A stretch of DNA of 64,000 bases, from the NCBI GenBank assembly GCA_035544735.1, contig DATKCD010000093.1:86-64085 (forward strand), in the 5' to 3' direction. A program made the translations under genes and the position numbers. The notes under the pieces are model-generated. The model saw only the letters and a list, made by a program, of their open reading frames with translations. It had not been told where the DNA came from and ran no database searches. This stretch comes from Thermoanaerobaculia bacterium (GTDB lineage: Bacteria > Acidobacteriota > Thermoanaerobaculia > Gp7-AA8). This document shows positions 1,512 to 60,518 of the stretch, piece after piece. Position 1 is the stretch's first letter, and every line of letters begins with the position of its first letter.

Positions 1512-3623
1512 CTAGCCGAACGTCGCCGCCGGATGGAATCGCGGGCCGAGCCGCGACTCGAGCGCGCCCAGCCGCCTCCGGACGTCGGGAAGTCCCTCGC
1601 GCCGCGCCCAGGCGAACGGGCCGCCGCGAAAGGGAGGAAAGCCGAGCCCGAGGACCGCGCCGAGATCTCCGTCGTCTTCGGATTTCAGGATGTCGTCGTC
1701 GAGACACCACGCCGCCTCTCCGACCATCGCGAGCACGAGCCGCTCGACGATCTCGACGGCCGGGAGCTGAGCGGGCCCGGGCGAGCCGAGCGCGGCGAGG
1801 GCGTCCGGGTTCGGTCCGATCTTCCGGCCGTCGCGGTAGAGAAAGAAGCCACGGCCGCTCTTCCTTCCGAGGAGACCCGCCTCGGCGAGCGCGGCGAGGC
1901 CGAGCGAGGGCTCGTGCCCCCGCTCGGCGAACGCCTCGCCGATCTCGGCCGAGACGTGCGCCGCGACGTCGATCCCGACCTCGTCCAGCAGCGTGATCGG
2001 CCCGACGGGAAAGCCGAACTCGCGCAGCGCGGAATCGATCGCACCGGGGGCGACGCCTTCCTCGAGCAACATCATCGCCTCATTGAGATACGGCGCCAGA
2101 ATGCGCGTGGTGTAGAACCCCGGCCCGTCGCCGACGACGATCACCGCCTTTCCCTGCTGGACTCCGAGCGCGGCGGCCGCGGCGATCGCCCGATTCGACG
2201 CGCGCGAGGGGGCGACGATCTCGAGCAGCGGCATCTTCGGAACGGGAGAGAAATAGTGCATCCCGATCACCCGCTGCGGGTGCTGCAGGCCTCGCGCGAG
2301 CTGCGCGATCGGAATCGCCGAGGTGTTCGAGGCGAGGACCGCGTCGGGGCCGGCGATCCGCTCGAGCTCAGCGAGCAGGCGACGCTTGAGCGCGAGGTCC
2401 TCGAAGACCGCCTCGATGATCACGTCGCAGCCGGCGAGGCCCGAAAGATCGCTCGCCACCGCGAGGCGGGCGACGCGCTCGTCCCGCTGCGCCGCGCTCA
2501 GCGCGCCGGCGCGGACGCGCCGCTCCAGCGAGCTCTCGATCGACGCCCGGGCCTTCGCCGCCGTCTCGGAGCTCACGTCTTCGAGCACGACCTCGTACAC
2601 GTCGAGCGTGACCGAGGCGATCCCCTCCCCCATCAATCCCGCGCCGACCACCCCGACCCGCCCGATCGCCGGAGCATCGGCCGGCCGTTTCTTCCGCGCC
2701 GCCGTCAGCTCGAACAGGCGAATCAGCTCTTTCGCCTCCGCCGACGCGACGAGCCGGCCGAACGCCGCGATCTCGCTGCGCTGACCGGCGCGAAAGCCCT
2801 CGGCGAGCCCGCTCCGGACGGCCTCGAGGATCTCGAATGGAGCGGGATGGAGCCCGCGCGTCCTGCGCACGATCTGCGAGCGCGCCTTTCGAAGCAGCAG
2901 AGCGCGCATCGGAGCGGCCGCGAGGATGCGGTTCTGCAGCGGGCGCCGCCCGGCGGGAGTCCCGAGGCGAGGGCTCCAGGAGGCCGAGCTCCAGCGCGCG
3001 GCGGTCCGCCTGGAGGCGAGCTCGCGTGCGAGAGCGAGGGCGATCTCGACGGTCGACCCGGGAGGGGCGAGGCGATCGATCAGCCGCAGCTCGAGCGCCC
3101 GGCGCGCCCGCACGCGCGAGCCGGTCAGCAGCATCGGGAGCGCCTGCGGCAGACCGATCAGCCGCGGAAGCCGCTGCGTTCCTCCCGCGCCCGGCAACAG
3201 GCCGAGCGTCACCTCCGGAAGTGCGAGCACCGTCGCCGGATCGTCGCTCGCGACGCGGGCGTGGCAGGCGAGCGCGAGCTCGAGCCCTCCGCCGAGCGCC
3301 GCCCCTTCGATGGCGGCGACGAACGGCTTCGGCGACACGGCGATCCGATCGAACAGATCGTGCGCCCGGCGCGAGAGCCGTTCCGCCTCGCTCGCCTCCC
3401 GGATCGCCGAGAGCTCGCGAAGGTCGGCGCCCGCCACGAACGTTCCCGGCTTGCCGCTCGCGATCACCGCGGCCCGGTGATCGTCCTCGTGCTCGATCCG
3501 GTCGAGCATCGCCTCGAGCTCGTCGAACAGATCCGAGCGGAGAATGTTGAGGCGCGAGTCGGGTACGTCGATCCGGACGATCGCCACGCCGTCGCGAGTC
3601 TCGAGCGACAGAGCGCCGGCCAT
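1512..3623 (-). CDS. Bifunctional enoyl-CoA hydratase / 3-hydroxyacyl-CoA dehydrogenase (FadJ/FadB-type fatty-acid oxidation alpha subunit)
   Basis: 703-aa ORF. N-terminal crotonase fold (GKPGTFVAGADL, AAIEGAALGGGLELALACH) fused to an NAD Rossmann domain (VGVVGAGLMGEGIA) and C-terminal HCDH repeats. Confidence 0.9.
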   Translation of the reverse strand: MAGALSLETRDGVAIVRIDVPDSRLNILRSDLFDELEAMLDRIEHEDDHRAAVIASGKPGTFVAGADLRELSAIREASEAERLSRRAHDLFDRIAVSPKPFVAAIEGAALGGGLELALACHARVASDDPATVLALPEVTLGLLPGAGGTQRLPRLIGLPQALPMLLTGSRVRARRALELRLIDRLAPPGSTVEIALALARELASRRTAARWSSASWSPRLGTPAGRRPLQNRILAAAPMRALLLRKARSQIVRRTRGLHPAPFEILEAVRSGLAEGFRAGQRSEIAAFGRLVASAEAKELIRLFELTAARKKRPADAPAIGRVGVVGAGLMGEGIASVTLDVYEVVLEDVSSETAAKARASIESSLERRVRAGALSAAQRDERVARLAVASDLSGLAGCDVIIEAVFEDLALKRRLLAELERIAGPDAVLASNTSAIPIAQLARGLQHPQRVIGMHYFSPVPKMPLLEIVAPSRASNRAIAAAAALGVQQGKAVIVVGDGPGFYTTRILAPYLNEAMMLLEEGVAPGAIDSALREFGFPVGPITLLDEVGIDVAAHVSAEIGEAFAERGHEPSLGLAALAEAGLLGRKSGRGFFLYRDGRKIGPNPDALAALGSPGPAQLPAVEIVERLVLAMVGEAAWCLDDDILKSEDDGDLGAVLGLGFPPFRGGPFAWARREGLPDVRRRLGALESRLGPRFHPAATFG

Positions 3624-3642: not shown

Positions 3643-4533
3643 TCAGCGCCCGGTGCGCAGCGACTCGAGGAGCCTCTGATCCCGCTCTTCGGGCGAGGCC
3701 CCGGCGGTCAGCGCTCCCTCCCACGATCCGTACATCGGATTCGGCACCACGAACCACCGCGTCCCCCACCACGATTCGTACGGCCGGATCTTGTCGAGGC
3801 GCTCGTCACGGGAGACGCGGACGCCCGGAAGGAAGTCGCCGAGATCGTCGCCGATCATCAGCAGGACGCGGAATCCTCGGGCGACCGACCGGCGGCGATC
3901 GCTCTTTTCGGAAGTGGCCCACTCCGGCCGCTCGCCCCGCAGCAGGACCGTGTCGATCTCGGCGGAGAGCGGGAAGCCGGCGGATCTGAGGTTGTCGCGC
4001 GTGGCGGCTTCGTGCTCGGCGTCGCGGTTGCTCACGTAGAAGATCGTGACGCCCCGGCTCGCCGCGTGCCGCGCGAACTCCAGCGCTCCCGGGATCGCGG
4101 GGGCGTTCCTCTCGTCGACCCACGCGGTCCAGTTCTGCGCGTTGAAGCTGCCGCCGCTCAGGATCAAGCGAGCCTCGAACGGCGAGTTGTCGAGCATCGT
4201 CTCGTCGACGTCGACGATGACCGCCGGGGGCAGCGAGGTGTCGGGCGAGAGCTGCTCCGGCGCGGCGCTGATCGTCGGGTCGGCGAGGGCCCGGTCGAGG
4301 GCGGTCCGGGCCGAATTGAACGCCTGGAGCGCGAGCGCACGGTACTCCGCCGCGGTCTGGATCCAGAGAACGGCGTTCAGCAGGCGGTGATCGGCCGTCG
4401 AGCGGGCCGTCGCGGACGGCGTCGCGGCGGGCGCGACCGGCTCCGGGGCGGCCGACGGCGGCGGAGCCACCATGCCGGGCGTGCGGCATCCGACGGCGAG
4501 CAGAAGGACTGCGATCTGGACGGTTCTGCGCAT
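3643..4533 (-). CDS. Class C acid phosphatase / 5'-nucleotidase, lipoprotein e(P4) family (HAD superfamily)
   Basis: ORF 3643..4689 trimmed to the internal ATG at 4533, which is preceded by GGAGGA. Lipobox MRRTVQIAVLLLAVGC. HAD motifs VIVDVDETMLDNSP, YVSNR, MIGDDLGDF. Confidence 0.85.
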   Translation of the reverse strand: MRRTVQIAVLLLAVGCRTPGMVAPPPSAAPEPVAPAATPSATARSTADHRLLNAVLWIQTAAEYRALALQAFNSARTALDRALADPTISAAPEQLSPDTSLPPAVIVDVDETMLDNSPFEARLILSGGSFNAQNWTAWVDERNAPAIPGALEFARHAASRGVTIFYVSNRDAEHEAATRDNLRSAGFPLSAEIDTVLLRGERPEWATSEKSDRRRSVARGFRVLLMIGDDLGDFLPGVRVSRDERLDKIRPYESWWGTRWFVVPNPMYGSWEGALTAGASPEERDQRLLESLRTGR

Positions 4534-4622: not shown

Positions 4623-5723
4623 GTGAGCGCTTCCCGGCCGCAACTGGTCGTCGTGATCGGCGCCGGTCCCGCGGGGCTGGCTGCATCACACGAGCTGAAG
4701 CGGCGGGGGATCGAGCACCGCGTGCTCGAGCGCGGCGCCTCGGTCGGCACGAGCTGGCGCGGGCTCTACGACAGTCTCGTCCTCCACACCGGCAGGCATC
4801 TGTCCCATCTGCCGGGAATGAGATTTCCGCGGGGGACGCCGCTGTTCCCGCCGCGCGATGCGCTCGTGTCGTACCTGGAGCGTTACGCCGGGGGTTTGCC
4901 GGTGGAGACCCGCTGCGCGGTGCATCGGGTGACGCGGGTGAATCAGACGTGGCGGGTGCTCAGCTCGCGAGGGGAGATCCGCGCCGGGGCGATCGTCGTC
5001 GCGACGGGAATCATCTCGAATCCGCGGGTCCCCCGTCTGCCGGGGAGCGAGGAGTTCGGCGGGCCGATCCGACACAGCGTCGAGTACCTGCGAGCGGAGG
5101 CGTGCGAGCGGCGGCGCATCCTGATCGTCGGAACGGGGAACTCCGCCAACGAGATCGCGACCGAGCTCGCCGCGCACGGCGCGCGCGTGAGCGTCGCGGT
5201 CCGCTCCGGCGCCAACGTGGTTCCGAGAGAGATTCTCGGGATCCCGATCCAGTACCTCGCCGCCCTGGTCCGCCGGCTTCCCGCCCCCGTGCGCCGTTCC
5301 GTCGTCGGAGCGGTGGGGGCGGTGACCGAATGGAGGAACGGCCCCTCTCCGTTTCCCCGCCCGCCGTACGGTCCCCTCGATTCGATCCCGATGATCGGCA
5401 CGGGACTGGTGCGCGCGATCCGCGAAGGGCGCATCGCGCTTCGGGGCGGCATCGAGCGGCTGACCGGACGGGGTGCGCGCTTCGCCGACGGGACCGAAGA
5501 GGAGTTCGACGAGATCCTGCTCGCCACCGGATTCGATCCTGCGATCGAGATCCTCGGCGGTCTGGTACGGCTCGACGAGCGGCGATTCGCGCGCCGGCGC
5601 GACCGCGTCGTCAGCCTCGACCAGCCCAACCTCTACTTCATCGGACACAACTACGATTCAGCCGGCGCGCTCTGGAACATCAGGCGCGATGCGCCGCTGA
5701 TCGCCGAGCGATTGTCGAGGTAG
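4623..5723 (+). CDS. Flavin-containing monooxygenase-like FAD/NADPH oxidoreductase (class B)
   Basis: 366 aa with a GTG start. GAGPAGLA (FAD), FGGPIRHSVEY (FxGxxxHxxxY FMO motif), GTGNSANEIA (NADPH). Confidence 0.8.
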   Translation: MSASRPQLVVVIGAGPAGLAASHELKRRGIEHRVLERGASVGTSWRGLYDSLVLHTGRHLSHLPGMRFPRGTPLFPPRDALVSYLERYAGGLPVETRCAVHRVTRVNQTWRVLSSRGEIRAGAIVVATGIISNPRVPRLPGSEEFGGPIRHSVEYLRAEACERRRILIVGTGNSANEIATELAAHGARVSVAVRSGANVVPREILGIPIQYLAALVRRLPAPVRRSVVGAVGAVTEWRNGPSPFPRPPYGPLDSIPMIGTGLVRAIREGRIALRGGIERLTGRGARFADGTEEEFDEILLATGFDPAIEILGGLVRLDERRFARRRDRVVSLDQPNLYFIGHNYDSAGALWNIRRDAPLIAERLSR

Positions 5724-6011: not shown

Positions 6012-6632
6012 ATGCGACGAGTCTCGAAGACCGCAGCTCTGATTCTGTTCGTATTCGCACTGCCCGTGATCGCCGAACCGGCTTCGAGCCGAACAGAGGC
6101 GCCGCCGTTCGTGCGGCCAGCGGCGCCACCTCCCGCGACGTTGCGCGCCACTCCTCCCGAGCTCGAAACCCTACTCGACGATCCTCAGGTCGTCGCGCTC
6201 TTCCGCGACCTCTTTCTTCTCTCCGGCGCCGGAACGACCGACTTCGAGCGCGCCGCCTTTCTCGTCCGCGACGGCGGCCGCTGGAGCTGCCTGCTCTGGC
6301 CGATGAAGATGCGCTTCCGCAGCGAGGAGTTCGCCGGCGTCGTTCCCGCGGGTACTGTCGCGATCATCCACACCCATCCGAACGGCATCGTCCACGCCTC
6401 GAAACAGGATCGCGAATCGGCCCGAGCCACCAGGCTTCCCCTGTTCACGATCACCCAGGGCAGCATCACCGTCGTCGATCCCGTCACCGGCACCGAGCGG
6501 TGGGCCGTCCGTCACCAGGTCTGGACCAGGAGCGTCCCGGCCGCTCTGATCGAAACGTGCCGCTGCCGCGAGATCGGAGCTCCGAACCGTGCGCCGCTGC
6601 CCGGAGGTCTCCTCGCCGGCGCAGGTCAGTGA
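6012..6632 (+). CDS. Exported hypothetical protein with JAB/MPN+-like metal-site signature
   Basis: 206 aa; GAAGGGAG lies upstream of the ATG. Signal-peptide-like MRRVSKTAALILFVFALPVIAEP. IIHTHPNGIVHASKQD fits H-x-H-x7-S-x2-D. Confidence 0.6.
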   Translation: MRRVSKTAALILFVFALPVIAEPASSRTEAPPFVRPAAPPPATLRATPPELETLLDDPQVVALFRDLFLLSGAGTTDFERAAFLVRDGGRWSCLLWPMKMRFRSEEFAGVVPAGTVAIIHTHPNGIVHASKQDRESARATRLPLFTITQGSITVVDPVTGTERWAVRHQVWTRSVPAALIETCRCREIGAPNRAPLPGGLLAGAGQ

Positions 6633-20200: not shown

Positions 20201-20345
20201 CGGCGGCCTGATCGCATCGACGCTCGTCACCCTCGTGCTCATCCCGGTCGCCTACATCAGCGCCACCGGCACGGTCGCCCGCATCCGGGGGCGGATGTCG
20301 TGGAAGGCCCGCCCGCCGGCGGACGAAGATCGCGCAACGGCGTGA
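17244..20345 (+). CDS. RND efflux transporter permease (AcrB/HAE1-like)
   Basis: 1033 aa in a 12-TM layout with two large periplasmic loops. Typical start ITNASIRRPVATSMIYLMLIVVG. Starts 13 nt after the adaptor gene. Confidence 0.95.
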   Translation: MAAITNASIRRPVATSMIYLMLIVVGVVSFRALPIDLLPAVEFTQLTVRVRYPNVGPEEIERIITDPIENAVSGLPNLERMTSVSEEGSSRVRLEFARGTNIDEAANDLRAALDRLRDELPLEADPPEILKLDLDRIEVVSMYATSSHPLSELTRILEEDLARRFEQIPGVGAIQVRGGIYREIRVELDRERLQASGLTALDVQEAIARENVTLPGGNVKSGFSDLYVRTSGEYVSVDQIASTVITTIDGFPMRVADVARVRDGHEDVLYLVEVNGVPSVSLGIQKQSGANTVEVAQEIRREVARINAESDEIHLTIFSDQSEFIRQSIASVRNSAIWGGLLAIVILYVFLRNRSSTFIISLAIPISVISTFGLLYFGGMTLNQMTFGGLALGVGLMVDNAIVVIESIVRKREETDASSVEAAAVGTREVAGAIVASTLTSCVIFLPVVFTRTTSGALFQALALVVVFALVCSLMVALTLVPMLAARLHRSGRARTRRNLFARAETWYTGRLRRAVQRRGLVFAATGGLLLAALLLWPLIPVELAPQTDADEIDVDIDMAQGTNIAVVGTYVRELESRVRRLLSPGDVELVTTEVRGSHAEVELKLAPQGRRAVSATEIADRLRSSLEGQIPGAEIRVDAQPGLWILRRIFSSGGGEEAIELELREWDLDRADETARAMLRRIEGIAGITDVRISRREGQPEENLVIDRARIAEVGLSAREVARTLQANLGGMEAGRLRQGGEEYPIVVRLRPEDRLLAEDLRNVSLRTSTGGTVPLSTLVRRERSRGPTAIGRVDGQRVTYITASLEGGLALGEAVERIREALTEVPLPETSSLLFGGEYQEQQEARRDFLIAIAMAIALVYMLMAAQFERFLDPLVVMLSVPMALVGVVPALLLTGTTLNMQSIMGLIMLVGVVVNNAIVFVETINLLRRERHLAAPEAVVEAGRLRLRPILMTTSTTVLALLPLAIGIGAGAEIQAAFARVVIGGLIASTLVTLVLIPVAYISATGTVARIRGRMSWKARPPADEDRATA

Positions 20346-20348
20346 ACA

Positions 20349-20671
20349 AGGCATTGAAAAGCATTGAGGATCTATGATTGATGATTGCAAACCATTGATG
20401 ATCTATGATTGATGATTGATGATTGATGATTGAAAGGCATTGAGGATCTATGATTGATGATTGATGACTGATGGCCGAGGATGGTTGAGCGGCTACCGAT
20501 GGTCACCGATCACCGTCCCGCAGACTCGCATCGATCACGCGTACGAGCCCCCAACCATCAATCCTCAAATCATCAATGCTGTTCGATCATCAATCATCAA
20601 TCATCAATCATAGATCATCAATGTCTTTCAATGGTTTGCAATCATCAATCATCGATCATCGATCATCAATG
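20349..20671. repeat. AT-rich palindromic element made of inverted TGATTGA heptamer arrays (copy 1)
   Basis: Left arm 20349-20473 is (TGATTGA)n with GCATTGA/TTGCAAA punctuation. Right arm 20551-20671 is its reverse complement. Perfect inverted blocks: 20375-20398 with 20628-20651 (24 bp), and 20393-20430 with 20586-20623 (38 bp). The left arm is about 34% G+C by hand count. Confidence 0.9.
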
Positions 20672-21427
20672 GGGTTCGCGACGATCACGCTCAACCGTCC
20701 GGAGAAGCTGAATGCGTTCGCCGGGACGATGCGCGAGGAGCTGATCGCCGCGCTCGATCGCGCGCGGGACGAGCCGGGCGTCCGCTGCGTCGTGATCACC
20801 GGCGCCGGACGTGCGTTCTGCGCCGGAGGAGACGTGGAGGCGATGAGCCGCATGCGCCGGGAGGGAGACCTCGACGGCTTCATGCGGCTGCTCGATGCGG
20901 GAGCGAGGATCGTCACGGCGATCCGTGAGATGCCGAAGCTCGTGCTCGCCTCGATCAACGGAGTCGCCGCGGGAGCCGGCTGCAATCTCGCCCTCGCCGC
21001 CGACGTCAGGATCGCATCCTCGGAGGCGACGCTCGTCGAGAGCTTCGTCCGGATCGGCCTGCATCCCGACTGGGGAGGGACGTACTTCCTGCCGCGGCTG
21101 GTCGGGACTTCGCGGGCGATCGAGCTGATGGCGACGGGAAGAGTCGTCGGCGCCGCGGAGGCGCTCGAGATCGGGATGGTGGACCGGGTGGTGGAACCGG
21201 GGCGGCTTTCCGCGGAGACCACGGAGCTGGCGCGCGCGGTCGCGTCGGGCCCGCCGGGCGCGATCGCCGACCTCAAGCGCGCCGTTCTCGCCGCGGAGGG
21301 CGGCCGGCTCGCCGAACAGCTCGAGCTCGAGAAAGAGCACCAGCGACGGGCTTTCAACTCCGCCGATGCGGCCGAAGGGATCGCCGCCTTCCTCGAGAAG
21401 AGACCTCCCCGATTCGACGGCCGTTGA
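20669..21427 (+). CDS. Enoyl-CoA hydratase/isomerase (crotonase) family protein; start uncertain (20669, 20621 or 20576)
   Basis: FATITLNRPEKLNAF, VVITGAGRAFCAGGDV, ASINGVAAGAGCNLALAADVRI. The ORF is open upstream through the repeat arm. Confidence 0.85.
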   Translation: MGFATITLNRPEKLNAFAGTMREELIAALDRARDEPGVRCVVITGAGRAFCAGGDVEAMSRMRREGDLDGFMRLLDAGARIVTAIREMPKLVLASINGVAAGAGCNLALAADVRIASSEATLVESFVRIGLHPDWGGTYFLPRLVGTSRAIELMATGRVVGAAEALEIGMVDRVVEPGRLSAETTELARAVASGPPGAIADLKRAVLAAEGGRLAEQLELEKEHQRRAFNSADAAEGIAAFLEKRPPRFDGR

Positions 21428-29027: not shown

Positions 29028-29078
29028 GCGGCGGCCGCTCCCGCTCAGCCTCTTCCGGGTTCTGCGTTCTGCGTCCGT

Positions 29079-29132
29079 GACGCCCGAGACGCTCCAGACG
29101 CTCCAGACGCTCCAGACTCCCCGGACGCCGGG
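29079..29132. repeat. Nonamer tandem repeat (GACGCTCCA family), about 6 units, in the ileS upstream region
   Basis: gacgcccga gacgctcca x3 gactccccg gacgccggg. Same unit as the arrays at 59344-59588. Confidence 0.75.
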
Positions 29133-29195
29133 CCCGGAGATTGAAATCTCCGACCCCGGGTGCTAGTTTGCGCCTCCATCGGTGAGGGGTCGTCA

Positions 29196-31997
29196 ATGCC
29201 GGATCAGCCACGCAAGAAGGACTGGAAGAAGACGCTCAACCTGCCGCAGACGCCCTTCCCCATGAAGGCGAACCTGCCGCAGAACGAGCCGAAGCGGCTC
29301 GAGCAGTGGGAGGCGGCCGGCCTGTACGCGAAGATCCGGGAGCGCTCGGCCGGAAAGCCTCGGTTCGTCCTCCACGACGGTCCGCCGTACGCGAACGGCC
29401 ACATTCACATCGGCCACGCGCTCAACAAGATCCTGAAGGACCTCGTCGTCAAGTCGCGCACGATGATGGGATACGACTCTCCCTACGTTCCGGGATGGGA
29501 CTGCCACGGACTGCCGATCGAGCATCAGGTCGACAAGGAGCTCGGGCCGAAGAAGAAGGAGATGTCGGCGGCCGAGTTCCGCCGCGCGTGCCGCACGTTC
29601 GCCGCGAAGTTCATCGACGTGCAGCGCGAGGACTTCAGGCGCCTCGGCGTGTTCGGTGAATGGGACGGCCCGTATTCGACGATGTCGTACGACTACGAGG
29701 CGAGGATCGCCGGAGCGCTCGGCGAGTTCTTCGAGAAGGAGCTCGTCTACAGGGGACTCAAGCCGGTCCACTGGTGCACCCACTGCCGGACCGCGCTCGC
29801 CGAAGCCGAAGTCGAATACGAGGATCACACCTCGCCGTCGGTCTACGTGAAGTTCCGCCTGACGGACGACGCGGTGCAGGCGCTCGGGCTCCCGGTCGAG
29901 ATTCCGCACCATGCCGTGATCTGGACGACGACGCCCTGGACGCTTCCGGCGAACCTGGCGATCACCCTCCATCCCGAGCTCGAGTACGCCGTGGTCCGAG
30001 TGGGAGACGAGGCCTTCGTCGTCGCGAGAGAGCTGCTCGGCACGGTCGGCGCGAAGTTCGGATGGACCGGGCCGAAAGCGGAGAAGATCTTCCGCGGAGC
30101 GGCGTTCGAGCGGCTCGGCTACCGGCACGCCTTCCTTCCGCGCGAAGGAATCTTCGTTGTGGGCGACTACGTCACGCTCGAGGCGGGGACCGGGCTGGTG
30201 CACACCGCCCCGGGACACGGAGCCGACGACTTCCACACCGGCATGAAGTACGGGCTGCCGATCTATACGCCCGTCGATGCGCGGGGCGAGTTCACACCGG
30301 ACGTCCCGTGGGCCGGCACGCACGTGCTGAAGGCGAACCCCGAGATCGTCGAGCTGCTCCGCGAACGGGGGGCTCTGCTCGCATTCGAGCGCGTGACGCA
30401 CTCCTATCCGCACTGCTGGCGCTGCAAGAATCCGATCATCTTCCGCGCCACCGAGCAGTGGTTCATCGGCATGGACCGCGACCGGTTCCGCGAGCGCGCG
30501 CTCCGCGCCATCGCCGAGGTCGAGTGGATCCCGGCCTGGGGAGAAGAACGCATCGGCGGAATGGTCGAGAACCGCCCCGACTGGTGCATCTCGCGCCAGA
30601 GGCTCTGGGGCGTTCCCATCACCGTTCTCTTCTGCGAAGCGTGCAGCACCCCGCTCACCTCGAAGGAGTTCTTCGAAAGAGTCGTCGCGCTGTTCCGCAC
30701 CGATGGAGCCGACGCCTGGTACGACCATCCTCCGGAGGACTTCCTGCCCGACGGCGCGAGCTGCGCGCATTGCGGCGGCACCACCTTCCGGAAGGAGTTC
30801 GACATTCTCGACGTCTGGTTCGACTCCGGCTGTTCCCATCTGGCGGTCCTCGAGGAGCGCGCCGACCTCGGCTGGCCGGTCGCCGTCTACCTCGAGGGGC
30901 ACGATCAGCACCGCGGCTGGTTCCAGTCCTCCCTCCTGATCGGCGCCGCACTGCGCGGACGCGCCCCCTTCGAGCGCGTCGTGACCCACGGATTCGTCGT
31001 CGACGAACAGGGGCGGAAGATGTCGAAGTCGATCGGCAACGTCGTCTCCCCCCTCGACGTCCTGAAACAGCACGGCGCCGACATCCTCCGGCTCTGGGTC
31101 GCCATGGTCGATTACCGCGGCGACATCGCCATCGGCCCCGAGATCCTCACCCGCATCTCCGAGGCGTACCGGAAGATCCGGAACACAGCCCGGTTCCTGC
31201 TGGCGAACCTGAGCGATTTCGATCCGGCCCTCCACGCCGTCCCTCATGACCGGCTCGAGCCTCTCGACCGCTGGATCCTCGACCGCGCGGGCGAGGCCTT
31301 CGATCGATGCCGGAAGGCCTACGAACAGTTCGAGTACCACGTCGTCTACCACCGGATCCTGGAGCTCTGCACGGTCGACCTGTCGGCCGTCTACCTCGAC
31401 GTCGTGAAGGATCGTCTCTACGTCGAGGGGCCCGATTCGCCCACCCGGCGCGCGGCGCAGACCGCGACCTGGGAGATCCTCCGCGGCCTCGCCTCGATGC
31501 TCGCCCCGATCCTGAGCTTCACGGCCGAGGAGATCCACGAGCAGATGCCGGGACGAAGCGAGGTGTCGGTCCATCTGACGAGCTTCCCCGATTCGTCGGG
31601 GCAGACGATTCCCCGGGCCGAGGCGGCGGCATGGCAAAGGGTCTTCGCTCTTCGCGAAGCGGTCTCGCGGGTTCTCGAGAAGGCGCGTGGCCGGGGGGAG
31701 ATCGGCCAGTCGCTCGAGGCGGACATCGTGCTGCGCGGGCTCGACGAGGAGAAGCTGACCGGAGGGCTCGATCTCGACCTCTCGAAGATCTTCATCGTCT
31801 CACACGTTTTCGTGGAGCCGGGGGCCGAGGGCGAAGAGGGGGTCGAGGTGGAGGGGGTCGGGCGGGTCGGAATCGAGATGCGCCCCGCGGCAGGGCGGAA
31901 GTGCTCCCGCTGCTGGCACTACCGGGAGGAGGTTGCGTCCGGAGAGGGGCTCTGCGGGCGGTGTGATGCGGTCGTGGGCGCCCTTCCCGTCTCGTGA
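29196..31997 (+). CDS. ileS: Isoleucine--tRNA ligase (type 1, C-terminal zinc finger)
   Basis: [35 protein letters not shown] (HIGH), KMSKS, C-terminal CSRCWHY...CGRC. Confidence 0.97.
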
Positions 31998-38131: not shown

Positions 38132-38779
38132 TCAGGGCGTCGGCTGCGGCGCAGCCGCGTTCCAGTTCACATGGTAAACGATCCCGTCGTCGAAGTAGAC
38201 CGCGGCGGCTCCGCCGTCCTCCCGGGGGAAGATCCAGACCGAGTAGAGCCGATCGTCCTGGCGCGCGTGCTTGATCCAGTCCTCGCGGGGGGTCCCGAGG
38301 CGGGAGGCGACCTCGCGCTCGCTCATGCCGGCGCGAACCGAGGCGAAGTCGTCCATCGAGACGAACCTGCGCGACTGCGCCATGTTCAGACGTCTGCGGG
38401 CGTCGTCGTTGTCGGGATCGACCGCGAGAGCGGAGCGGTAGAGCTCGATCGCCCGCTCGTAGCGCGCGAGCAAGCTCATGTAGGCATCGCCGAGCCGGAT
38501 CCGCTCGTTCGCGAGAAGCCTCGCCGCGCGTGGATCACCGGTCCGGCCATGGTACTCGCGCAGCCGGCCGAGCAGGGGGGCGAGGGTCGGTTCGAGGCGC
38601 TGCTGGTTCCGCAGATGGATCTCCACGTGCTCGCTCCGCGAGGCGCCGGGCGGCGGCTGAGGCAGGACGCGCCGCAGCGACTCGACCGTCTGGTATTCAG
38701 CCCAGAGCGAGGTCCACTCCCGATCGTTCGGCCGCGTCGGGAGGGCCGTGGCACAGGCAGCCGAAAGCAGCAGAATCAT
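38132..38779 (-). CDS. Lipoprotein with TPR-like and SmpA/OmlA (BamE-like) segments; start uncertain
   Basis: MILLLSAAC lipobox at ATG 38779. LGDAYMSLLARYERAIELYRSALAVDPDN; FASVRAGMSEREVASRLGTP. The ORF stays open upstream through the repeat arm. Confidence 0.65.
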   Translation of the reverse strand: MILLLSAACATALPTRPNDREWTSLWAEYQTVESLRRVLPQPPPGASRSEHVEIHLRNQQRLEPTLAPLLGRLREYHGRTGDPRAARLLANERIRLGDAYMSLLARYERAIELYRSALAVDPDNDDARRRLNMAQSRRFVSMDDFASVRAGMSEREVASRLGTPREDWIKHARQDDRLYSVWIFPREDGGAAAVYFDDGIVYHVNWNAAAPQPTP

Positions 38780-38780
38780 T

Positions 38781-39160
38781 AAGGCATTGATGATTGAGGA
38801 TTGATGATTGATGATTGAAGGCATTGTTGATTGATGATTGATGATTGAGGATTGATGATTGAAAAGCATTGATCATGGATGACTGAAAGGCATTGAAGGT
38901 GATTGATGAATCGGGATCGATCCTCGGATCGGTGAGCTCCGCTCCGACTGCTGAATGTTGATTTCTGCCGGCTGATTGCGACGACGATCTCTACTACGCA
39001 TCGCTGCCTTTCAATCATCAATCATCAGGCTTTGCAATCATCAATCCTCAATCCTCAATCATCAATCCTCAATCATCAATGCTTTGCAATCATCAATCAT
39101 CAATCATCGATCATCAATGCCTTGCAATCATCAATCATCGATCATCAATGCTTTTCAATG
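38781..39160. repeat. AT-rich palindromic element made of inverted TGATTGA heptamer arrays (copy 2)
   Basis: Left arm 38781-38912 is (TGATTGA/GGATTGA)n. Right arm 39006-39160 is (TCAATCA/TCAATCC)n. A perfect 28-bp inverted block pairs 38784-38811 with 39055-39082. Same GCATTGA and TTGCAA(A/G) punctuation as copy 1. Confidence 0.9.
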
Positions 39161-40270
39161 TCTCTTGAGGCCGTCGACCACGGGGGCGATCCGATCCTCG
39201 AGGCGCGCGCCGAACTCGGCGCGGATCTCGAAGATCCATCCGTAGAGGAGCTCGTTCACTACCGAATTGACGATGTCGTTGCGATCGGTCGATCCCGACG
39301 AGATGAGGTTGTTGAGGAGCTGATCGAAGTCGACCCGTCCTTCGTTCATCAGGTTGATCCCGCTCAGGTAGGGGAGGACCTCGGGGGAGAGATGGAGGAC
39401 GACGCGATCGAGGAAGTCGTAGATGTGATCTCCGATTTCCTGATAGACGATGCCGAAGATGAGCTGGAAGGCGGAATTGTAGCTTTCGACGCGCGATTCG
39501 AGCTCCATTTCGCGCTCGAGCTCGCTGCGGCGGGCGTCGCGCCGGATGCCCTCTTCGTCCTCGACCAGGTTGACGGCGAGCAGGGCCCAGAGGGTGCGGC
39601 AGGTCTGGAAGTTCGACAGATAGCTGCGCGCGCAGATCGATCCGACCGACTGCGGCTCGGAGAGCAGCTCGAAGATGATCGTCTCGTCCTCGCGCAGATC
39701 GAGATGGTAGATCCGCGAGTCTCCGTCGGCGGCCTGCCGGAGGGTGCGTTCCATCTTTCCGACTCCGCGAGAGACGAGCGACCATTCGGTGATGCGTCCG
39801 ACTCCGTCGAGCAGAAGGCGCTCGGTCTGGATGGGAAGGCGCGGGATCTCGCGGTCGAAATCCGCGGTGAACTCGATCGTGTAGCTGCCCGAGCGGTAGG
39901 CAAGGGCGTGGATGACGACATCCGAGACCTGGCGCTCGAGCGCGCGGACCAGCTCCTCCGGCTTCAGGTAGCCGAGCTCGCAGAGGACCGAGCCGATTCG
40001 CTGGTGGCTCGTGGCGCTCTCGGTGGCGCGGATGTAGTCGTGAATCCCGATCTCTCCGTTGCGCAGGAGCACTTCCGCGAGCCCGAGGTCGGGATCGGAG
40101 GTGGCTGCGTAGACGATCTTGCCCCGGCGGAGATAGATGCTGTCGTGCCGGCCGATGGCTTCGAGCGTGACGACCGCCGTCTCGGCGCTCCGGATCAGGG
40201 ATCGGCAGAGATCGGGCACCGTCGTCTCGGCCAGCGTTCCCTGAATGGTCAGCTCTTCGCTCATCGGCAC
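39155..40270 (-). CDS. DUF4388 (PATAN-type) domain protein
   Basis: N-terminus LTIQGTLAETTVPDLCRSLIRSAETAVVTLEAIGRHDSIYLRRGKIVYA fits the DUF4388 pattern (G-L, hydrophobic block, G-x-L, G-x-iv-A). Starts 1 nt after the GGDEF gene stop. Confidence 0.75.
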   Translation of the reverse strand: MPMSEELTIQGTLAETTVPDLCRSLIRSAETAVVTLEAIGRHDSIYLRRGKIVYAATSDPDLGLAEVLLRNGEIGIHDYIRATESATSHQRIGSVLCELGYLKPEELVRALERQVSDVVIHALAYRSGSYTIEFTADFDREIPRLPIQTERLLLDGVGRITEWSLVSRGVGKMERTLRQAADGDSRIYHLDLREDETIIFELLSEPQSVGSICARSYLSNFQTCRTLWALLAVNLVEDEEGIRRDARRSELEREMELESRVESYNSAFQLIFGIVYQEIGDHIYDFLDRVVLHLSPEVLPYLSGINLMNEGRVDFDQLLNNLISSGSTDRNDIVNSVVNELLYGWIFEIRAEFGARLEDRIAPVVDGLKRH

Positions 40271-47082: not shown

Positions 47083-48216
47083 CTATTTCAGGTCGACGAT
47101 CTGTTCCCGGACGAGCTTGTGGAAGATGAGGAGGGCGTCGATCTCGCGCATGGGGCTGATCTTGGTGATCGAGGCGACGTCCCACTGCGCGTTGATCCGC
47201 GAGAGGATGAATCCCTCGTTCGGGGTGAAGTTCATGCCGCTGAGCTCCTCGAGCGGGCGCCGCAGATGCGGCACCCTGTGGTCCGAGATCCCCTGGCGCT
47301 TGAGCTCCGAGAGGATGACGGACTCACCCCCCTTGAGAGCGGTGCGGACCTTCGCGCTCTCGGGATCGAGGTTCTGAGCCGCCTTGAGCAGCCGCAGCGC
47401 CTTCTCGAACTCCCCCTCCTTCAGCCCGCCCTGCGCGCGGGCGAGGAGAGACTCGATCTCGGAGTCGTCGGCGGAGAGCTCGGCCGGCGCGGCCGCCGGC
47501 TCCGGCGCGGCCGCCGCCGCTTTCTCTCCGAGCTTCATCTTTCCAGCCGAAACGAGCTCCGAGATCGTCCGCGACACGACGAAGGTCGACGATCGGCTCT
47601 CGAGCACGATCCCTTCGATCGTCCGCTCGCCGTCCACCAGCTCGACGATCCTCTTCTGCGCCTCGTTCAGCTTGCTCAGGTCGAGCTTCCCCTTCCGCGA
47701 CGGAACCAGGGCCGTACTCGTCACCACCTTGCGGGCGCGGTCCCACTCGTCGACCCGCCGCGAGCCCTCCATCACGACCCCGGTGACGTCGAGGTTCAGC
47801 GGCACCAGCTCCATCGCCGGCTTCTCGTCGTCGTGGAACTCGAACTCTCCGTCCGGCCAGAGAAAAACGTCGTAGATCTCCTCTTCCGCCTTCCGCTTCA
47901 TCAGTCGCTTGAGGTCGTCCTCGGTGATCGCCTCGATGATGACCAGGATCTTGCCGAGCAGGATCTTCGATTGCAGCTGGACCTCCATCGCCTTCTTCAG
48001 CTCGTCCTCCGAGATGTAGCCGTAGCTCATGAGGAACTGGCCGAGGTACTCCCGAGGATCGGTGGAGGCGGATGAGACGACTTTTCCCTTCTGAACGAAG
48101 ATGGTTTTTTCGACCGAGGTGTTCCGGACGACGAGGCGTCCGGTCTTCTGGCTGAAGCTCAGCCACTGGAACAGGTGGCCGGCGGCCATGGTGCGGAGGT
48201 GTCCGGAAACGCTCAT
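47083..48216 (-). CDS. DUF4388 (PATAN-type) domain protein with C-terminal TPR-like region
   Basis: MSVSGHLRTMAAGHLFQWLSFSQKTGRLVVRNTSVEKTIFVQKGKVVSSAS. Followed by LG-x-L-x-x-G-x-I-s-x-x-x-L repeats. Confidence 0.75.
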   Translation of the reverse strand: MSVSGHLRTMAAGHLFQWLSFSQKTGRLVVRNTSVEKTIFVQKGKVVSSASTDPREYLGQFLMSYGYISEDELKKAMEVQLQSKILLGKILVIIEAITEDDLKRLMKRKAEEEIYDVFLWPDGEFEFHDDEKPAMELVPLNLDVTGVVMEGSRRVDEWDRARKVVTSTALVPSRKGKLDLSKLNEAQKRIVELVDGERTIEGIVLESRSSTFVVSRTISELVSAGKMKLGEKAAAAAPEPAAAPAELSADDSEIESLLARAQGGLKEGEFEKALRLLKAAQNLDPESAKVRTALKGGESVILSELKRQGISDHRVPHLRRPLEELSGMNFTPNEGFILSRINAQWDVASITKISPMREIDALLIFHKLVREQIVDLK

Positions 48217-48312
48217 CGAGTGCGCCGCAGGTGAGGGCGGCACCCGCGCCCGCCGGCCGGGTGAAGGTAACAGACTTCCCCGGGCTTGTGAATCGAGCCG
48301 GCCCGCGGCGCC

Positions 48313-58594: not shown

Positions 58595-59446
58595 TCATGC
58601 CTGAACCGCGATCGCGAGGATCCGTCCCGCTCCGGCGCCGCTGCGACGATACGAATGGAAGATCGAGCCGTCACAGCGGGTGCAGAGGGCCGAATCGACG
58701 ATGTTCGCCCGATCGATCCCCCGCTGCTCCAGAATCCGGCGGGTCAGGCCCGCCAGGTCGAAATGGGGCCGCGGTCCGCGCGTTCGATCGACGAAAGGGT
58801 CCACCGAATCGTAACGGGCGGCAAAAGCCTCTACCACTTCGTCACCGACTTCGAAGCAGCAGGCACGGATCGCCGGACCGAGCCAGGCGCGGGCGCTCGC
58901 GGCGGAGAACGACGAAAGACGCTCGAGCTCGTCGAGTGTCCGCGGCACGACCCCCTGCGCGGCGCCTCTCCATCCCGAGTGGAGGTTCGCCAGAACGCGG
59001 TGCTCGGGATCGACCACGGTCACCGGAAGGCAGTCGGCGACCTTGATTCCGAGCGCCATGCCGGGACGATCGGTCCAGAGCGCGTCGCAGGTGCCGAGCT
59101 CCCGCCACCCGGTCGATGGACTCGCGGCAAAGACGAGCTCGGTCCCATGGACCTGCGTGCTGGTGACCAGTCCGATTCCAGCTCCCCACCGCCGCTGCAG
59201 GAACGTGGTCAGCGCGTCGAGGTCCTCCCCGGCGAGCCGACCGCTGAAATCGACCGAGGTGTAGAAGAGTCCGCATCGGTCGGGAAGCCGCGGGGCGAAC
59301 ACCACGCGCCCGAGGCCCGGAACCCTCTCGACGGACCACGGGGGCGTCTGGAGCGTCTGGAGCGTCTGGAGCGTCTGGAGCGTCTGGAGCGTCTTGGGCG
59401 TCTTGGGCGTCTTGGGCGTCTTGGGCGTCTCGGGCGTCTCAGGCAT
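58595..59446 (-). CDS. pgeF: Peptidoglycan editing factor PgeF (YfiH/DUF152, laccase-domain protein) with repeat-encoded N-terminal tail
   Basis: VHGTELV, ADCLPV, HSGWRG, CCFEVG, CTRC...FHSYRR. ATG at 59446 is preceded by AGGAGG 7 nt upstream. No other in-frame ATG occurs before the conserved core. Confidence 0.85.
   Translation of the reverse strand: MPETPETPKTPKTPKTPKTLQTLQTLQTLQTLQTPPWSVERVPGLGRVVFAPRLPDRCGLFYTSVDFSGRLAGEDLDALTTFLQRRWGAGIGLVTSTQVHGTELVFAASPSTGWRELGTCDALWTDRPGMALGIKVADCLPVTVVDPEHRVLANLHSGWRGAAQGVVPRTLDELERLSSFSAASARAWLGPAIRACCFEVGDEVVEAFAARYDSVDPFVDRTRGPRPHFDLAGLTRRILEQRGIDRANIVDSALCTRCDGSIFHSYRRSGAGAGRILAIAVQA
59344..59442. repeat. Nonamer array, 11 units (GCGTCTGGA x5, GCGTCTTGG x4, 2 variants), inside the pgeF 5' coding region
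   Basis: Read directly from the sequence. In frame it encodes PETPE(TPK)4(TLQ)5 on the minus strand. Confidence 0.9.
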
Positions 59447-59516
59447 CCGGGAGCCTCCTGGGTTCTGGGGCATCACATCACACATCGCACACGGCGTCCT
59501 GGGCCTCTACAGGTTG

Positions 59517-59588
59517 CAGACGCTCTGGACGCTCCAGACGCTCTGGACGCTCCAGACGCTCCAGACGCTCCAGACGCTCCAGACGCCC
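59517..59588. repeat. Nonamer array, 8 units (CAGACGCTC/TGGACGCTC), inverted relative to 59344-59442
   Basis: Abuts the stop codon (59589-59591) of the upstream DUF4388 gene. Positions 59546-59586 are perfectly complementary to the (GCGTCTGGA)5 run. Confidence 0.9.
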
Positions 59589-60413
59589 TCACGCCGTGCT
59601 GCGGAGCAGGGTGGCGATGTCGTTGCGGAGCTGCTCGGCGACGGCGGAGCCGCGGAGCAGGGCGGTGGTCTTTTCGAGCTCGCGGATCATCGCACGGATG
59701 GCGAGCGGACCGCTTCCCGAGCGGATCGCCTCGACGGCCGAGCCGAAATGCTTCTCGATCGATTTCGATCCGTTCGCGCCGATGTGCTGCTCGGCGACCC
59801 CGCGGATCTGCCGCGCCAGGTCGACCAGCGCTTCGACTTCGGTGTCGTCCGCTTCGGCGGGCGCCTCGTCGGCTTTCGAGCGCGTCAGCCCGACCAGCTC
59901 CGCGGTCAGCATTCCGTAGAGAATCTTCGCGGCCTCGAACGACGAGAGCTCGAGCGATTGCGCGATCCCGGCGACGCTCTGCTGCCCGTCGATGCGCGTC
60001 ACGAGCAGCCACTCTTGCGGATTGAGCGTGATCTGTTCGTGGCGGTTGTCGCGTGGGAGCAGGATCGGGATCATGTCGACCGAGGGGATCTTCCTCGACA
60101 ACACCTTCCATTCGTCGGCCCGCCGCGCAGCCTCCATCAGAAGGTTGGTGTTCGACCGGGTGATCGTCTGCTCGGTCGTCTCTTCGGTCTGGGCGAAGAC
60201 GAAGTCGCCCTCCTTCCAGATCGCCAGGGCGTAGACCGCTTCCTCCCCCGTCATCTCGCCGCTCTCGGCGTGAATGATCTGACCGTTGCGCAGGAAGATC
60301 AGCCCCTCTTCATCCCCTCGAGTCAGCGTGAACTTTCCGGTCTTGCCGGAAACGCTGACGAGCTGGATGATATCGGGAAGCGGAAGCTCCTTGAGCGAAC
60401 CCTGAAAGGACAT
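59589..60413 (-). CDS. DUF4388 (PATAN-type) domain protein
   Basis: MSFQGSLKELPLPDIIQLVSVSGKTGKFTLTRGDEEGLIFLRNGQIIHAESGEMTGEEAVYALAIWKEGDFVF, a textbook DUF4388 N-terminus. Start taken at ATG 60413. Confidence 0.8.
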   Translation of the reverse strand: MSFQGSLKELPLPDIIQLVSVSGKTGKFTLTRGDEEGLIFLRNGQIIHAESGEMTGEEAVYALAIWKEGDFVFAQTEETTEQTITRSNTNLLMEAARRADEWKVLSRKIPSVDMIPILLPRDNRHEQITLNPQEWLLVTRIDGQQSVAGIAQSLELSSFEAAKILYGMLTAELVGLTRSKADEAPAEADDTEVEALVDLARQIRGVAEQHIGANGSKSIEKHFGSAVEAIRSGSGPLAIRAMIRELEKTTALLRGSAVAEQLRNDIATLLRSTA

Positions 60414-60518
60414 TCGACTCCGTTGCATCGGGGCGGCTAATCCGCCCGATGTCGCTGAACCCAAACGATTTCCGAGCGACGACAACCTGAGGCAGCAAGC
60501 GTAGCGCATCCCCCCCCG

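Follow-up and report, generated by a model that had tools for sequence, protein, structure and literature searches.

The short tandemly repeated repetitive (STRR) heptamers of cyanobacteria, reportedly described by Mazel et al. in 1990, form tandem arrays with a period of seven nucleotides. Heptanucleotide repeats have been counted as the most abundant class of long simple sequence repeats (LSSRs) in prokaryotes and ascribed to polymerase slippage (Mrazek et al. 2007, as cited in PMC4692102 and PMC4679880). The GGGAATC repeats of Xanthomonas campestris and X. axonopodis are intergenic heptamers that include 70–75 convergent pairs, which are potential stem-loops (Rehm et al. 2015, PMC4692102). 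Within a distance of 0–50 bp, their G-rich strand is the coding strand past stop codons, some of which are overlapped, and the non-coding strand before start codons; they are under-represented between divergent genes, and neither a link to mobile elements nor a function was identified (PMC4692102). Direct repeats of TAACTGA, described from marine Beggiatoaceae, Cyanobacteria, and Bacteroidetes, are mostly intergenic and abut start codons (MacGregor 2015, PMC4679880). This unit contains two stop triplets, with one orientation carrying stops in all frames and the other being translatable, and its distribution across phyla is patchy and its function unknown; the repeats are nearly all direct (one indirect set in 170), comprise 2–6 copies, and have been proposed as translation-initiation elements (PMC4679880). 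Here, we describe a palindromic pair of TGATTGA heptamer arrays at positions 38781–39160 of a 64,000-nucleotide stretch of a Thermoanaerobaculia bacterium (Acidobacteriota; contig DATKCD010000093.1 of assembly GCA_035544735.1), referred to below as the window, together with a second such locus at 20349–20671.

The element at 38781–39160 (copy 2) spans 380 bp and consists of two facing heptamer arrays with a unique center between them. The left arm, (TGATTGA/GGATTGA)n, occupies 38781–38912, and the right arm, (TCAATCA/TCAATCC)n, occupies 39006–39160. The 93-bp center (38913–39005) has a GC content of 0.57, compared with 0.36–0.37 for the arms and 0.68 for the whole window, and contains the palindrome GGATCGATCC at 38914–38923. 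The sequence GCATTGATGATTGAGGATTGATGATTGA at 38784–38811 is the exact reverse complement of 39055–39082 over 28 nt, and a repeat search lengthens this inverted block to 38 nt at 95%, variant units included. A first-pass annotation, made from the letters alone, had reported the two inverted arms around a center of about 93 bp with its 10-bp palindrome, the perfect 28-bp inverted block, and the junction strings gatgattgcaaggcattga, gatgattgcaaagcattga, and gatgattgcaaaccattga; direct reading of the sequence bears out each of these. Tandem Repeats Finder (TRF) detected period 7 at 10.7 and 18.7 copies as well as higher-order periods of 37–45 nt, and the higher-order modules in the arms measure 31–45 nt. 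Perfect (TGATTGA)4 runs are present, and the two arms carry unequal numbers of modules. With at most one mismatch allowed, the 14-mer TGATTGATGATTGA matches the window 27 times, always within 20375–20658 or 38791–39144, and 100 shuffles gave no match; at up to three mismatches, no degenerate relics of the 14-mer occur in the window outside these two loci. Such head-to-tail iteration of seven nucleotides, far beyond chance, at an intergenic site between the stop of a DUF4388 gene (39155) and the start of a lipoprotein gene (38779) is that of a heptanucleotide LSSR.

The element fills the gap between these two genes, which are co-directional and lie on the minus strand. On the gene strand, the arm proximal to the upstream gene (39006–39160) is G/T-rich and comprises about 19 heptamers, arranged in CATTGA-headed modules of TGATTGA/TGATCGA/GGATTGA that end in TGATTGCAA(A/G). 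The arm proximal to the downstream gene (38781–38912) is A/C-rich on the same strand, (TCAATCA/TCAATCC)n, free of stops in each frame and with TCAATGCCTT as its punctuation. The unique center between them shows no similarity to the centers of the other two palindromes of the window, to the rest of the window, or to relatives.

Both neighboring genes have lost their native ends to the element. For the DUF4388 (PatA_N) gene, the stop codon TGA (39155–39157, minus strand) falls within the element's terminal CATTGA, in agreement with the overlap reported in the first-pass annotation: after the conserved ...GLK of the protein the reading frame continues aga CAT TGA, the element supplying the stop codon, and orthologues end in ...GLKE* or ...GLRGK*. 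The lipoprotein ATG (38777–38779, minus strand) opens a product beginning MILLLSAAC..., a truncated signal peptide without the n-region seen in the MRKF..., MPRA..., and MTRL... of its orthologues (MRKFLIPLLALTLAC, MPRALFLLIALVLAAC). An alternative in-frame ATG at 38822–38824 (minus strand) lies inside the arm punctuation and would give MPSIINHQSSIINALMILLLSAAC. Since the DUF4388 stop falls in CATTGA and the lipoprotein N-terminus is truncated, the native ends have been replaced; judged from the sequence, the element overwrote the native stop, the spacer, the start, and about five lipoprotein codons, and is not a plain insertion. The downstream open reading frame (ORF) does stay open through the arm, as had been pointed out, but the unit makes this automatic: none of the frames of (TCAATCA)n contains a stop, and the open frame is therefore no evidence of translation. 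ORF callers run both 20669–21427 and 38132–38869 through the stop-free arm, which yields the spurious N-termini MLFDHQSSIINHRSS... and MLFNHQSSIINHQS.... The true starts of these two genes are uncertain because their native N-terminal codons are missing.

Homologues of the DUF4388/PatA_N protein assign the window to Thermoanaerobaculia (Acidobacteriota), the closest relative being 78% identical at the protein level. The gene string encoding GGDEF, DUF4388, lipoprotein, SPOR, LOG, and Mrp proteins is conserved in relatives. Relatives lack the element at the orthologous site, whereas in the window it has replaced the native spacer and gene ends. The spacer between the DUF4388 and lipoprotein genes is 20 bp long and empty in L120, and 52 bp long with a small GC hairpin in L125. 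It extends to 454 bp in L123, which carries a different palindromic repeat followed by short TTCATCG/TTCTGCG heptamers, while the L119 contig ends 97 bp past the stop inside another GC hairpin. Because relatives have 20–52 bp or unrelated repeats at this position, the TGATTGA element represents a lineage-specific gain at a repeat-collecting site. The palindromic repeat in the L123 spacer (6105–6558) is GC-rich and about 300 bp long (ggggtcattcagaggccgcacg ... cgtgcggcctctgaatgaccccc) and suggests that the orthologous site is a hotspot for hairpin-forming repeats.

The second locus, copy 1, lies at 20349–20671 on the plus strand and measures 323 bp, with a G/T-rich arm at 20349–20475, a unique center at 20476–20545, and an A/C-rich arm at 20546–20671. 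It is located between an AcrB-type gene (stop at 20343–20345) and an enoyl-CoA hydratase gene, whose ATG (20669–20671) coincides with the terminal TCAATG of the element. Read from this ATG, the hydratase comprises 252 residues and begins MGFATITLNRP. Almost all of 120 listed orthologues have 259–261 residues, six aligned orthologues begin MISSETNDYITTITLNRP or similar, and the Pfam match of the window protein opens at profile position 6. Copy 1 overruns about seven codons of the hydratase gene, replacing the native end as copy 2 does. It also sits at a synteny break, with AcrB upstream here and a Na/Ca exchanger upstream in L308.

The arms of both loci follow one grammar: a head xCATTGA, two to six units (TGATTGA/TGATCGA/TGATCTA/GGATTGA), and a closing TGATTGCAAx. 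Punctuated modules of 30–38 nt are nearly identical between the two loci, exact strings of up to 25 nt, punctuation included, are common to both, and both end in the 16-mer CATTGAAAAGCATTGA on the side of the upstream gene. The first-pass annotation had described the architecture and modules of copy 2 as matching those of copy 1, and the common grammar, terminus, and exact strings substantiate this; homology of the two loci beyond the bare heptamer is supported at the level of their modules. Private variants occur on both arms of their own locus, GATCTATGA and CCATTGA in copy 1 and GAGGATTGA mainly in copy 2, and therefore indicate concerted evolution between the arms of one locus. The centers behave differently. 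The annotation had proposed aligning centers and arms, and while the arms yield the common grammar, alignment and blastn-short found no similarity of the two centers to each other or to other examined sequences. A conserved cargo in the center is thereby ruled out.

The annotation had also contended that two independent loci argue for a genuine element family rather than local slippage. The homology of the modules upholds the first half of this claim, as do array heads like AAGGCATTG in two other Acidobacteriota genomes (L042 and L079) and the orthologous sites without the element in relatives, whereas the contrast with slippage is unwarranted. Against a discrete element stand the unrelated centers, the lack of a target-site duplication discernible by eye, and the lack of transposase, integrase, and RAYT (REP-associated tyrosine transposase) genes in the 64 kb. 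Furthermore, the (TGATTGA)4 runs and the locus-private variants are what slippage with concerted evolution would give. A "genuine element family" as opposed to "local slippage" is a false choice.

Among the described systems close to the element are the GGGAATC repeats of Xanthomonas. It shares their convergent pairing, since two opposite arrays have their G-rich strands facing each other, with the TGATTGA arm preceding the TCAATCA arm on either strand, and it shares their position, with the stop codon falling within its first unit and the start codon at its last. It differs from them in its AT-rich unit, which contains no G-runs and hence has no G-quadruplex potential (neither TGATTGA nor GGATTGA has a run of three or more G), in arms of 17–19 units compared with a preferred 4, in punctuated modules of 31–45 nt common to loci, and in its host phylum, Acidobacteriota. 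Like the TAACTGA repeats, the window heptamer contains two stop triplets, has a stop-rich and a translatable orientation, abuts start codons, and is patchily distributed over phyla; unlike them, its defining feature is an inverted pair with long arms. With LSSR and STRR heptamers it shares the intergenic, period-7 tandem arrays, but those are described, in the accounts that cite them, as single arrays, whereas the element shows inverted pairing, G/T-first polarity, and rewritten gene ends.

Repetitive extragenic palindromic (REP) sequences and bacterial interspersed mosaic elements (BIMEs), REP doublets forming hairpins (REPINs), Correia elements, and other MITEs (miniature inverted-repeat transposable elements) are short non-coding intergenic palindromes present in many copies, often in operons or at 3′ ends, which are co-transcribed and can form hairpins with effects on mRNA stability or processing. 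A REP or MITE is a unit sequence conserved from end to end, and tandem heptamers are not its building blocks; target-site duplications are typical of MITEs, and a RAYT gene goes with REPINs. The window element is likewise a non-coding intergenic palindrome, as are copy 1 and a 9-mer element described below in being intergenic, but it lacks whole-length conservation, since the arms of the two copies align and the centers do not. Nor is it a short multi-copy palindromic unit of about 20–40 nt like REP or REPIN, as its arms are tandem heptamers of 130–155 nt, and there are two copies in the 64 kb and none in a JGI metagenome scan. No target-site duplication was found by eye in the flanks (caagg...gggtt for copy 1, aagaga...attctg for copy 2). 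Among the approximately 45 genes of the 64 kb there is no transposase, integrase, RAYT, or other mobile-element gene; the window is ordinary chromosome, encoding a class-I aminoacyl-tRNA synthetase, a transglycosylase/transpeptidase penicillin-binding protein, a beta-ketoacyl synthase, methylmalonyl-CoA mutase, and PhoH-YbeY. Mycobacterial interspersed repetitive units (MIRUs) are tandem intergenic repeats in operons whose ends overlap the upstream stop and the downstream start, as those of the window element do. Unlike the element, with its inverted arrays of 7-mers, MIRU units are direct, 46–101 bp long, and contain small ORFs. A literature search turned up no bacterial paper with the TGATTGA 14-mer. 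Paired heptamer repeats, though little studied, have already been described in other bacteria, which makes the locus a curiosity rather than a novel type of system; what differs from the known pairs is the AT-rich unit, the long arms, the higher-order modules, the new phylum, and the rewritten gene ends.

The element belongs to a general SSR class because its architecture recurs with a 9-mer unit at 59341–59586, with other units elsewhere, and with GGGAATC in Xanthomonas. In the TRF output of 118 unrelated loci listed, period 7 is dominant with 248 of 600 rows, of which 115 concern other units. In viral contigs, exact 21-mers were found at 22 loci for TGATTGA, 12 for TGATGTA, 9 for TTGAGTA, 27 for TGATTAG, and 107 for TAACTGA. 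The idea of TGATTGA as a uniquely favored universal motif is weakened by these counts, as composition-matched controls are about as common (9–27 compared with 22, viral contigs only).

Across the 307 sequences analysed, inverted pairs of short repeats place the arm with more G than C first in 37 cases against 2 for other heptamers, 36 against 2 for target-like heptamers, and 9 against 3 for 8–9-mers, in sum about 82 against 7. Pairs of the TAACTGA type, in which G equals C, place TCAGTTA first, and for this reason the rule is best stated as the G/T-rich arm lying on the 5′ side. Stop codons are ruled out as the cause of the polarity, since TAACTGA pairs put the stop-rich arm second and GGGAATC contains no stops. 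The 5′ end of the G strand lies a median of 9–10 bp from the neighboring open frame and the 3′ end 68–78 bp, and inverted pairs are rare between divergent genes; the gene calls behind these cross-phylum statistics are crude, unreliable in high-GC DNA, and mis-called the strand of the left neighbor at this very locus, so that they lend rough support.

The exact 21-mer (TGATTGA)3 occurs in at least 118 stretches in species-representative genomes, among them about 36 from Bacteroidota, 18 from Planctomycetota, and 14 from Acidobacteriota, 8 of which come from one Blastocatellia metagenome-assembled genome (MAG). Further hosts are found in Verrucomicrobiota, Desulfobacterota, Chloroflexota, Cyanobacteria, and others, and include isolates of Robiginitalea, Elizabethkingia, Chryseobacterium, and Shewanella. 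Roughly one in four listed loci shows a convergent pair. Convergent pairs outnumber divergent ones by 33 to 5, or by 31 to 3 after removal of the window pairs and two by-products (binomial p ~8e-7). One Ignavibacteriaceae sequence (L032) holds three convergent TGATTGA pairs in a span of 5.5 kb (1645–1811, 3065–3299, and 5247–5488); their loops consist of other heptamers of the AGTCATT type, and a 31-copy array of the AACCCCC class is located at 3677–3893.

Array punctuation varies with lineage. An AAGGCAWT array head is common to the window (for example at 38817–38839) and to loci in two Acidobacteriaceae MAGs, L042 (1590–1720, beginning GAAGGCATTGTT...) and L079 (7750–7890, beginning GAAAGGCAATTATGA...), hinting at a repeat family at the level of the phylum. 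The full module junction TGATTGCAARSCATTGAKGAT gave three matches in JGI metagenome contigs, all attributable to chance; a head motif such as GAAGGCATTG followed by heptamers may be a better pattern than this query. A search of a protein collection for array-encoded peptides returned one generic array and did not find the family. Many of the 137 array heads, read on the G/T strand, appear to be G-rich and to resemble Shine-Dalgarno sequences (GGAGATTGATGA, GGGAATTGATGA, AGGATTGATGA). Such a head creates a Shine-Dalgarno sequence, an ATG, and a mini-ORF of four codons (ATG ATT GAT GAT TGA).

A giant hairpin is predicted from either strand, at −179 and −172 kcal/mol with z values of −11.6 and −14.1. 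The minimum free energies of sense and antisense are nearly equal (−163.3 vs −164.5 and −177.9 vs −176.9 kcal/mol), and for the 9-mer element at 59341–59586 the antisense RNA has the more stable fold, by 32 kcal/mol. Selection on a hairpin in the sense RNA was rejected as an explanation, given the lack of a G-U asymmetry. Because the strands are equal here and the 9-mer element is better in antisense, the palindrome looks like a product at the level of DNA and not like a selected RNA. In the predicted folds of both copies, the base of the stem pairs the downstream AUG with a CAU adjoining the upstream stop; in copy 2, AUG 38777–38779 pairs with CAU 39158–39160, the last sense codon of the DUF4388 gene. 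A Gemmatales locus (L065) has the same layout, with the stop in the first heptamer and an ATG 2 nt past the last. Rfam 15 gave no match for the element at the gathering threshold, and below it only models of C/D-box small nucleolar RNAs (E 0.28–0.56), due to UGAUGA. With nothing meaningful at either the gathering or the E-value threshold, a known RNA family is ruled out. A site scan of 38600–39300 detected no terminator-like site, and neither a promoter-like nor a terminator-like site was found in the center, and the idea of a promoter or terminator there was rejected.

We propose, with a probability of roughly 0.55, that the element is a palindromic heptanucleotide SSR produced by slippage and inter-arm template switching and tolerated because it folds away; it would be neither a gene nor a classical transposon. 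Its origin lies within this Thermoanaerobaculia lineage, at the short spacer inside the conserved GGDEF-DUF4388-lipoprotein-SPOR-LOG-Mrp string. Replication slippage would lengthen and shorten the arrays, 7-nt units being the favored prokaryotic class, while intrastrand template switching or gene conversion between the inverted repeats would keep the arms alike. The module type would have reached, or been copied to, the second locus 18 kb away. The terminal CATTGA provides the new stop codon of the upstream gene, and the stop-free A/C-rich arm ending in ...TCAATG the new start of the downstream gene, with the tolerated orientation presumably being only that with the G/T-rich arm on the 5′ side. 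Once transcribed with the operon, the arms would pair into a stem at least about 130 bp long, and its base would set the upstream stop against the downstream start. The stem might in addition serve as an RNase III site, a 3′-end stabilizer, or an insulator. The 380-nt insert would thus be folded away, with stop and start kept adjacent, and termination–reinitiation coupling or simple read-through could persist, which is why we think the structure is tolerated.

Several points weigh against this proposal. The unit has 29% GC in a genome of 68% GC, and single TGATTGA seeds outside the loci number 1, with 1.5 expected; as AT-rich seeds are rare in a high-GC genome, an origin by purely local slippage is not obvious, and further high-GC genomes (L090, L067, and L063) contain exactly this AT-rich unit as well. 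Long punctuated modules with a special terminus at two loci need a mechanism of copying between loci. Expansion adds DNA and deletes no gene ends, so that an extra step of deletion or replacement is required. The strong G/T-first polarity is left unexplained by slippage and may reflect selection for function; candidate reasons for it are that a G-poor arm free for Rho loading is avoided, or that false starts before the true one are. Finally, the arguments on folding and coupling rest on predicted structures, and the cross-phylum statistics on the crude gene calls, including the wrong strand of the left neighbor here.

The element could instead be a non-autonomous mobile element of the MITE or REPIN type, its arms serving as terminal inverted repeats with multiple binding sites for a transposase or RAYT acting in trans from elsewhere in the genome, and the two loci being independent insertions. 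The shared modules and CATTGAAAAGCATTGA terminus in the same orientation to the genes, the orthologous sites without the element, the synteny break at copy 1, the AT-rich composition foreign to the host, and the AAGGCAWT-headed arrays in two other Acidobacteriota genomes all fit this view, as does the different palindromic repeat at the orthologous site of L123, which indicates that the site accepts insertions. We nevertheless consider it unlikely: neither copy shows a target-site duplication by eye, the centers are wholly different and the lengths unequal (323 vs 380 bp), native sequence is replaced rather than interrupted, the 64 kb encode neither a transposase nor a RAYT or integrase, neither the JGI metagenome contigs nor the protein collection contains the family junction, and contiguous 7-bp units do not resemble the ends that transposases are known to bind. 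An assembly artefact, that is, a chimeric inverted join of low-complexity reads, is another conceivable reading: the contig is of metagenome type, low-complexity inverted repeats can be mis-assembled, and the L119 contig ends right at the orthologous intergenic site. This is scarcely credible given the imperfect arms with unequal module numbers, the unique center, the flanking genes entering the element ends in frame, three such loci on one contig, arrays in the isolate genomes of Robiginitalea, Elizabethkingia, Chryseobacterium, and Shewanella, and convergent pairs on contigs of 386–896 kb (L042 and L079).

The element could be a selected cis-acting RNA device of the operon, in which the hairpin couples or gates downstream translation, the start codon being paired at the stem base and opened by ribosomes terminating upstream; it might also act as an RNase III site or as a 3′-end stabilizer that uncouples cistron stability. 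The very stable predicted folds, the predicted pairing of the start AUG with a CAU beside the upstream stop in both copies, the similar layout in other phyla (L065), the rarity of pairs between divergent genes here and in Xanthomonas (PMC4692102), and a strict G/T-first polarity that is hard to account for without selection speak for such a device. Set against them are the equal stability of sense and antisense and the better antisense fold of the 9-mer element, the module numbers that differ between arms, the relatives that do with a spacer of 20–52 bp, the functionally unrelated downstream genes (lipoprotein, enoyl-CoA hydratase, YfiH-like), and the failure of Rehm et al. to identify a gene-regulation role for the Xanthomonas repeats (PMC4692102), and we regard the device as rather improbable. 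Equally doubtful is the broader proposition that inverted short-tandem-repeat palindromes of fixed polarity are an unrecognized cross-phylum functional intergenic device and not mutational debris. Here, the G/T-rich 5′ arm and A/C-rich 3′ arm found on both strands, with outer ends exactly on a stop and the next start, would form a stem that joins stop and start and preserves or gates termination–reinitiation across hundreds of nucleotides. The polarity would then be under selection, possibly so that the G-free, C-containing arm never lies open to Rho loading ahead of the transcription of its partner, or so that the strand before the start stays free of false starts and Shine-Dalgarno sequences, and the recurrent TGATTGA with the AAGGCAWT head in three Acidobacteriota genomes would mark the dispersal of a functional module.

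The arms could instead be site arrays for a protein that polymerizes on 7-bp heptads, or for single-strand binders such as Csp or S1 on the RNA, with a symmetric nucleoprotein complex regulating the neighbors or organizing the chromosome. A precedent is the omega protein of the ribbon-helix-helix type, whose targets on inc18 plasmids are WATCACW heptads, and the unit AATCATC presumably resembles the omega heptad AATCAC(A/T) at 5 of 7 positions. The strict 7-bp period, the contiguous sites in both orientations, and the presence of the same unit in many phyla are compatible with this idea, and binding of S1, Csp, or CsrA was proposed for the TAACTGA repeats (PMC4679880). Yet the same genomes carry dozens of other heptamer units, and the window a 9-mer, in this architecture, so that the class cannot be put down to any one binding specificity; control heptamers of matched composition occur about as often, and the arrays have no linked gene that would be a candidate binder. 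We therefore see little prospect for heptad binding, and slippage with inter-arm template switching remains our preferred account.

Two further repeats were found in the window. The 9-mer palindrome at 59341–59586 consists of 11 copies of GGAGCGTCT/TGGGCGTCT, a unique 77-bp center, and 7.8 copies of CCAGACGCT, and is located between a second DUF4388 gene (stop at 59589–59591) and a Cu-oxidase_4/YfiH-like gene. A solo array at 29079–29128 (plus strand) comprises 5.6 copies of the 9-mer unit GACGCTCCA, with its A/C-rich strand as the coding strand, upstream of the class-I tRNA synthetase gene; it is preceded by 2.3 copies of GTTCTGC at 29059–29074. The largest ORF past this array begins at 29160, and we judge from the translated N-terminus that the true start of the synthetase is probably an ATG near 29196, about 65 bp past the array. 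The same heptamer, TTCTGCG, also lies directly upstream of the lipoprotein start in L123 (6508–6527).

Three DUF4388/PatA_N paralogues are encoded in the 64 kb, at 39155–40270, 47083–48243, and 59589–60509. Two of the three palindromes lie directly downstream of such a paralogue, for which the chance, calculated post hoc, is about 0.01 (3 such genes among about 45). Orthologues of the first DUF4388 gene have no repeat downstream, apart from the unrelated repeats in the L123 and L119 spacers.

Heptamer repeats are the commonest long SSRs of prokaryotes and have no accepted function. Our analysis extends the paired convergent form, described once in Xanthomonas, to Acidobacteriota, and places the TGATTGA form in at least 12 phyla under one polarity rule that holds whatever the unit. 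Since a new stop and a new start codon can both come from repeats of this kind, annotation pipelines will mis-call N-termini, as seen here in the spurious "NHQSSII" extensions. The end of the L119 contig at the intergenic site is consistent with repeats interrupting assemblies there. If the polarity and the juxtaposition of stop and start prove to be selected, these palindromes would represent a simple route by which long structured RNA can enter operons without breaking expression.

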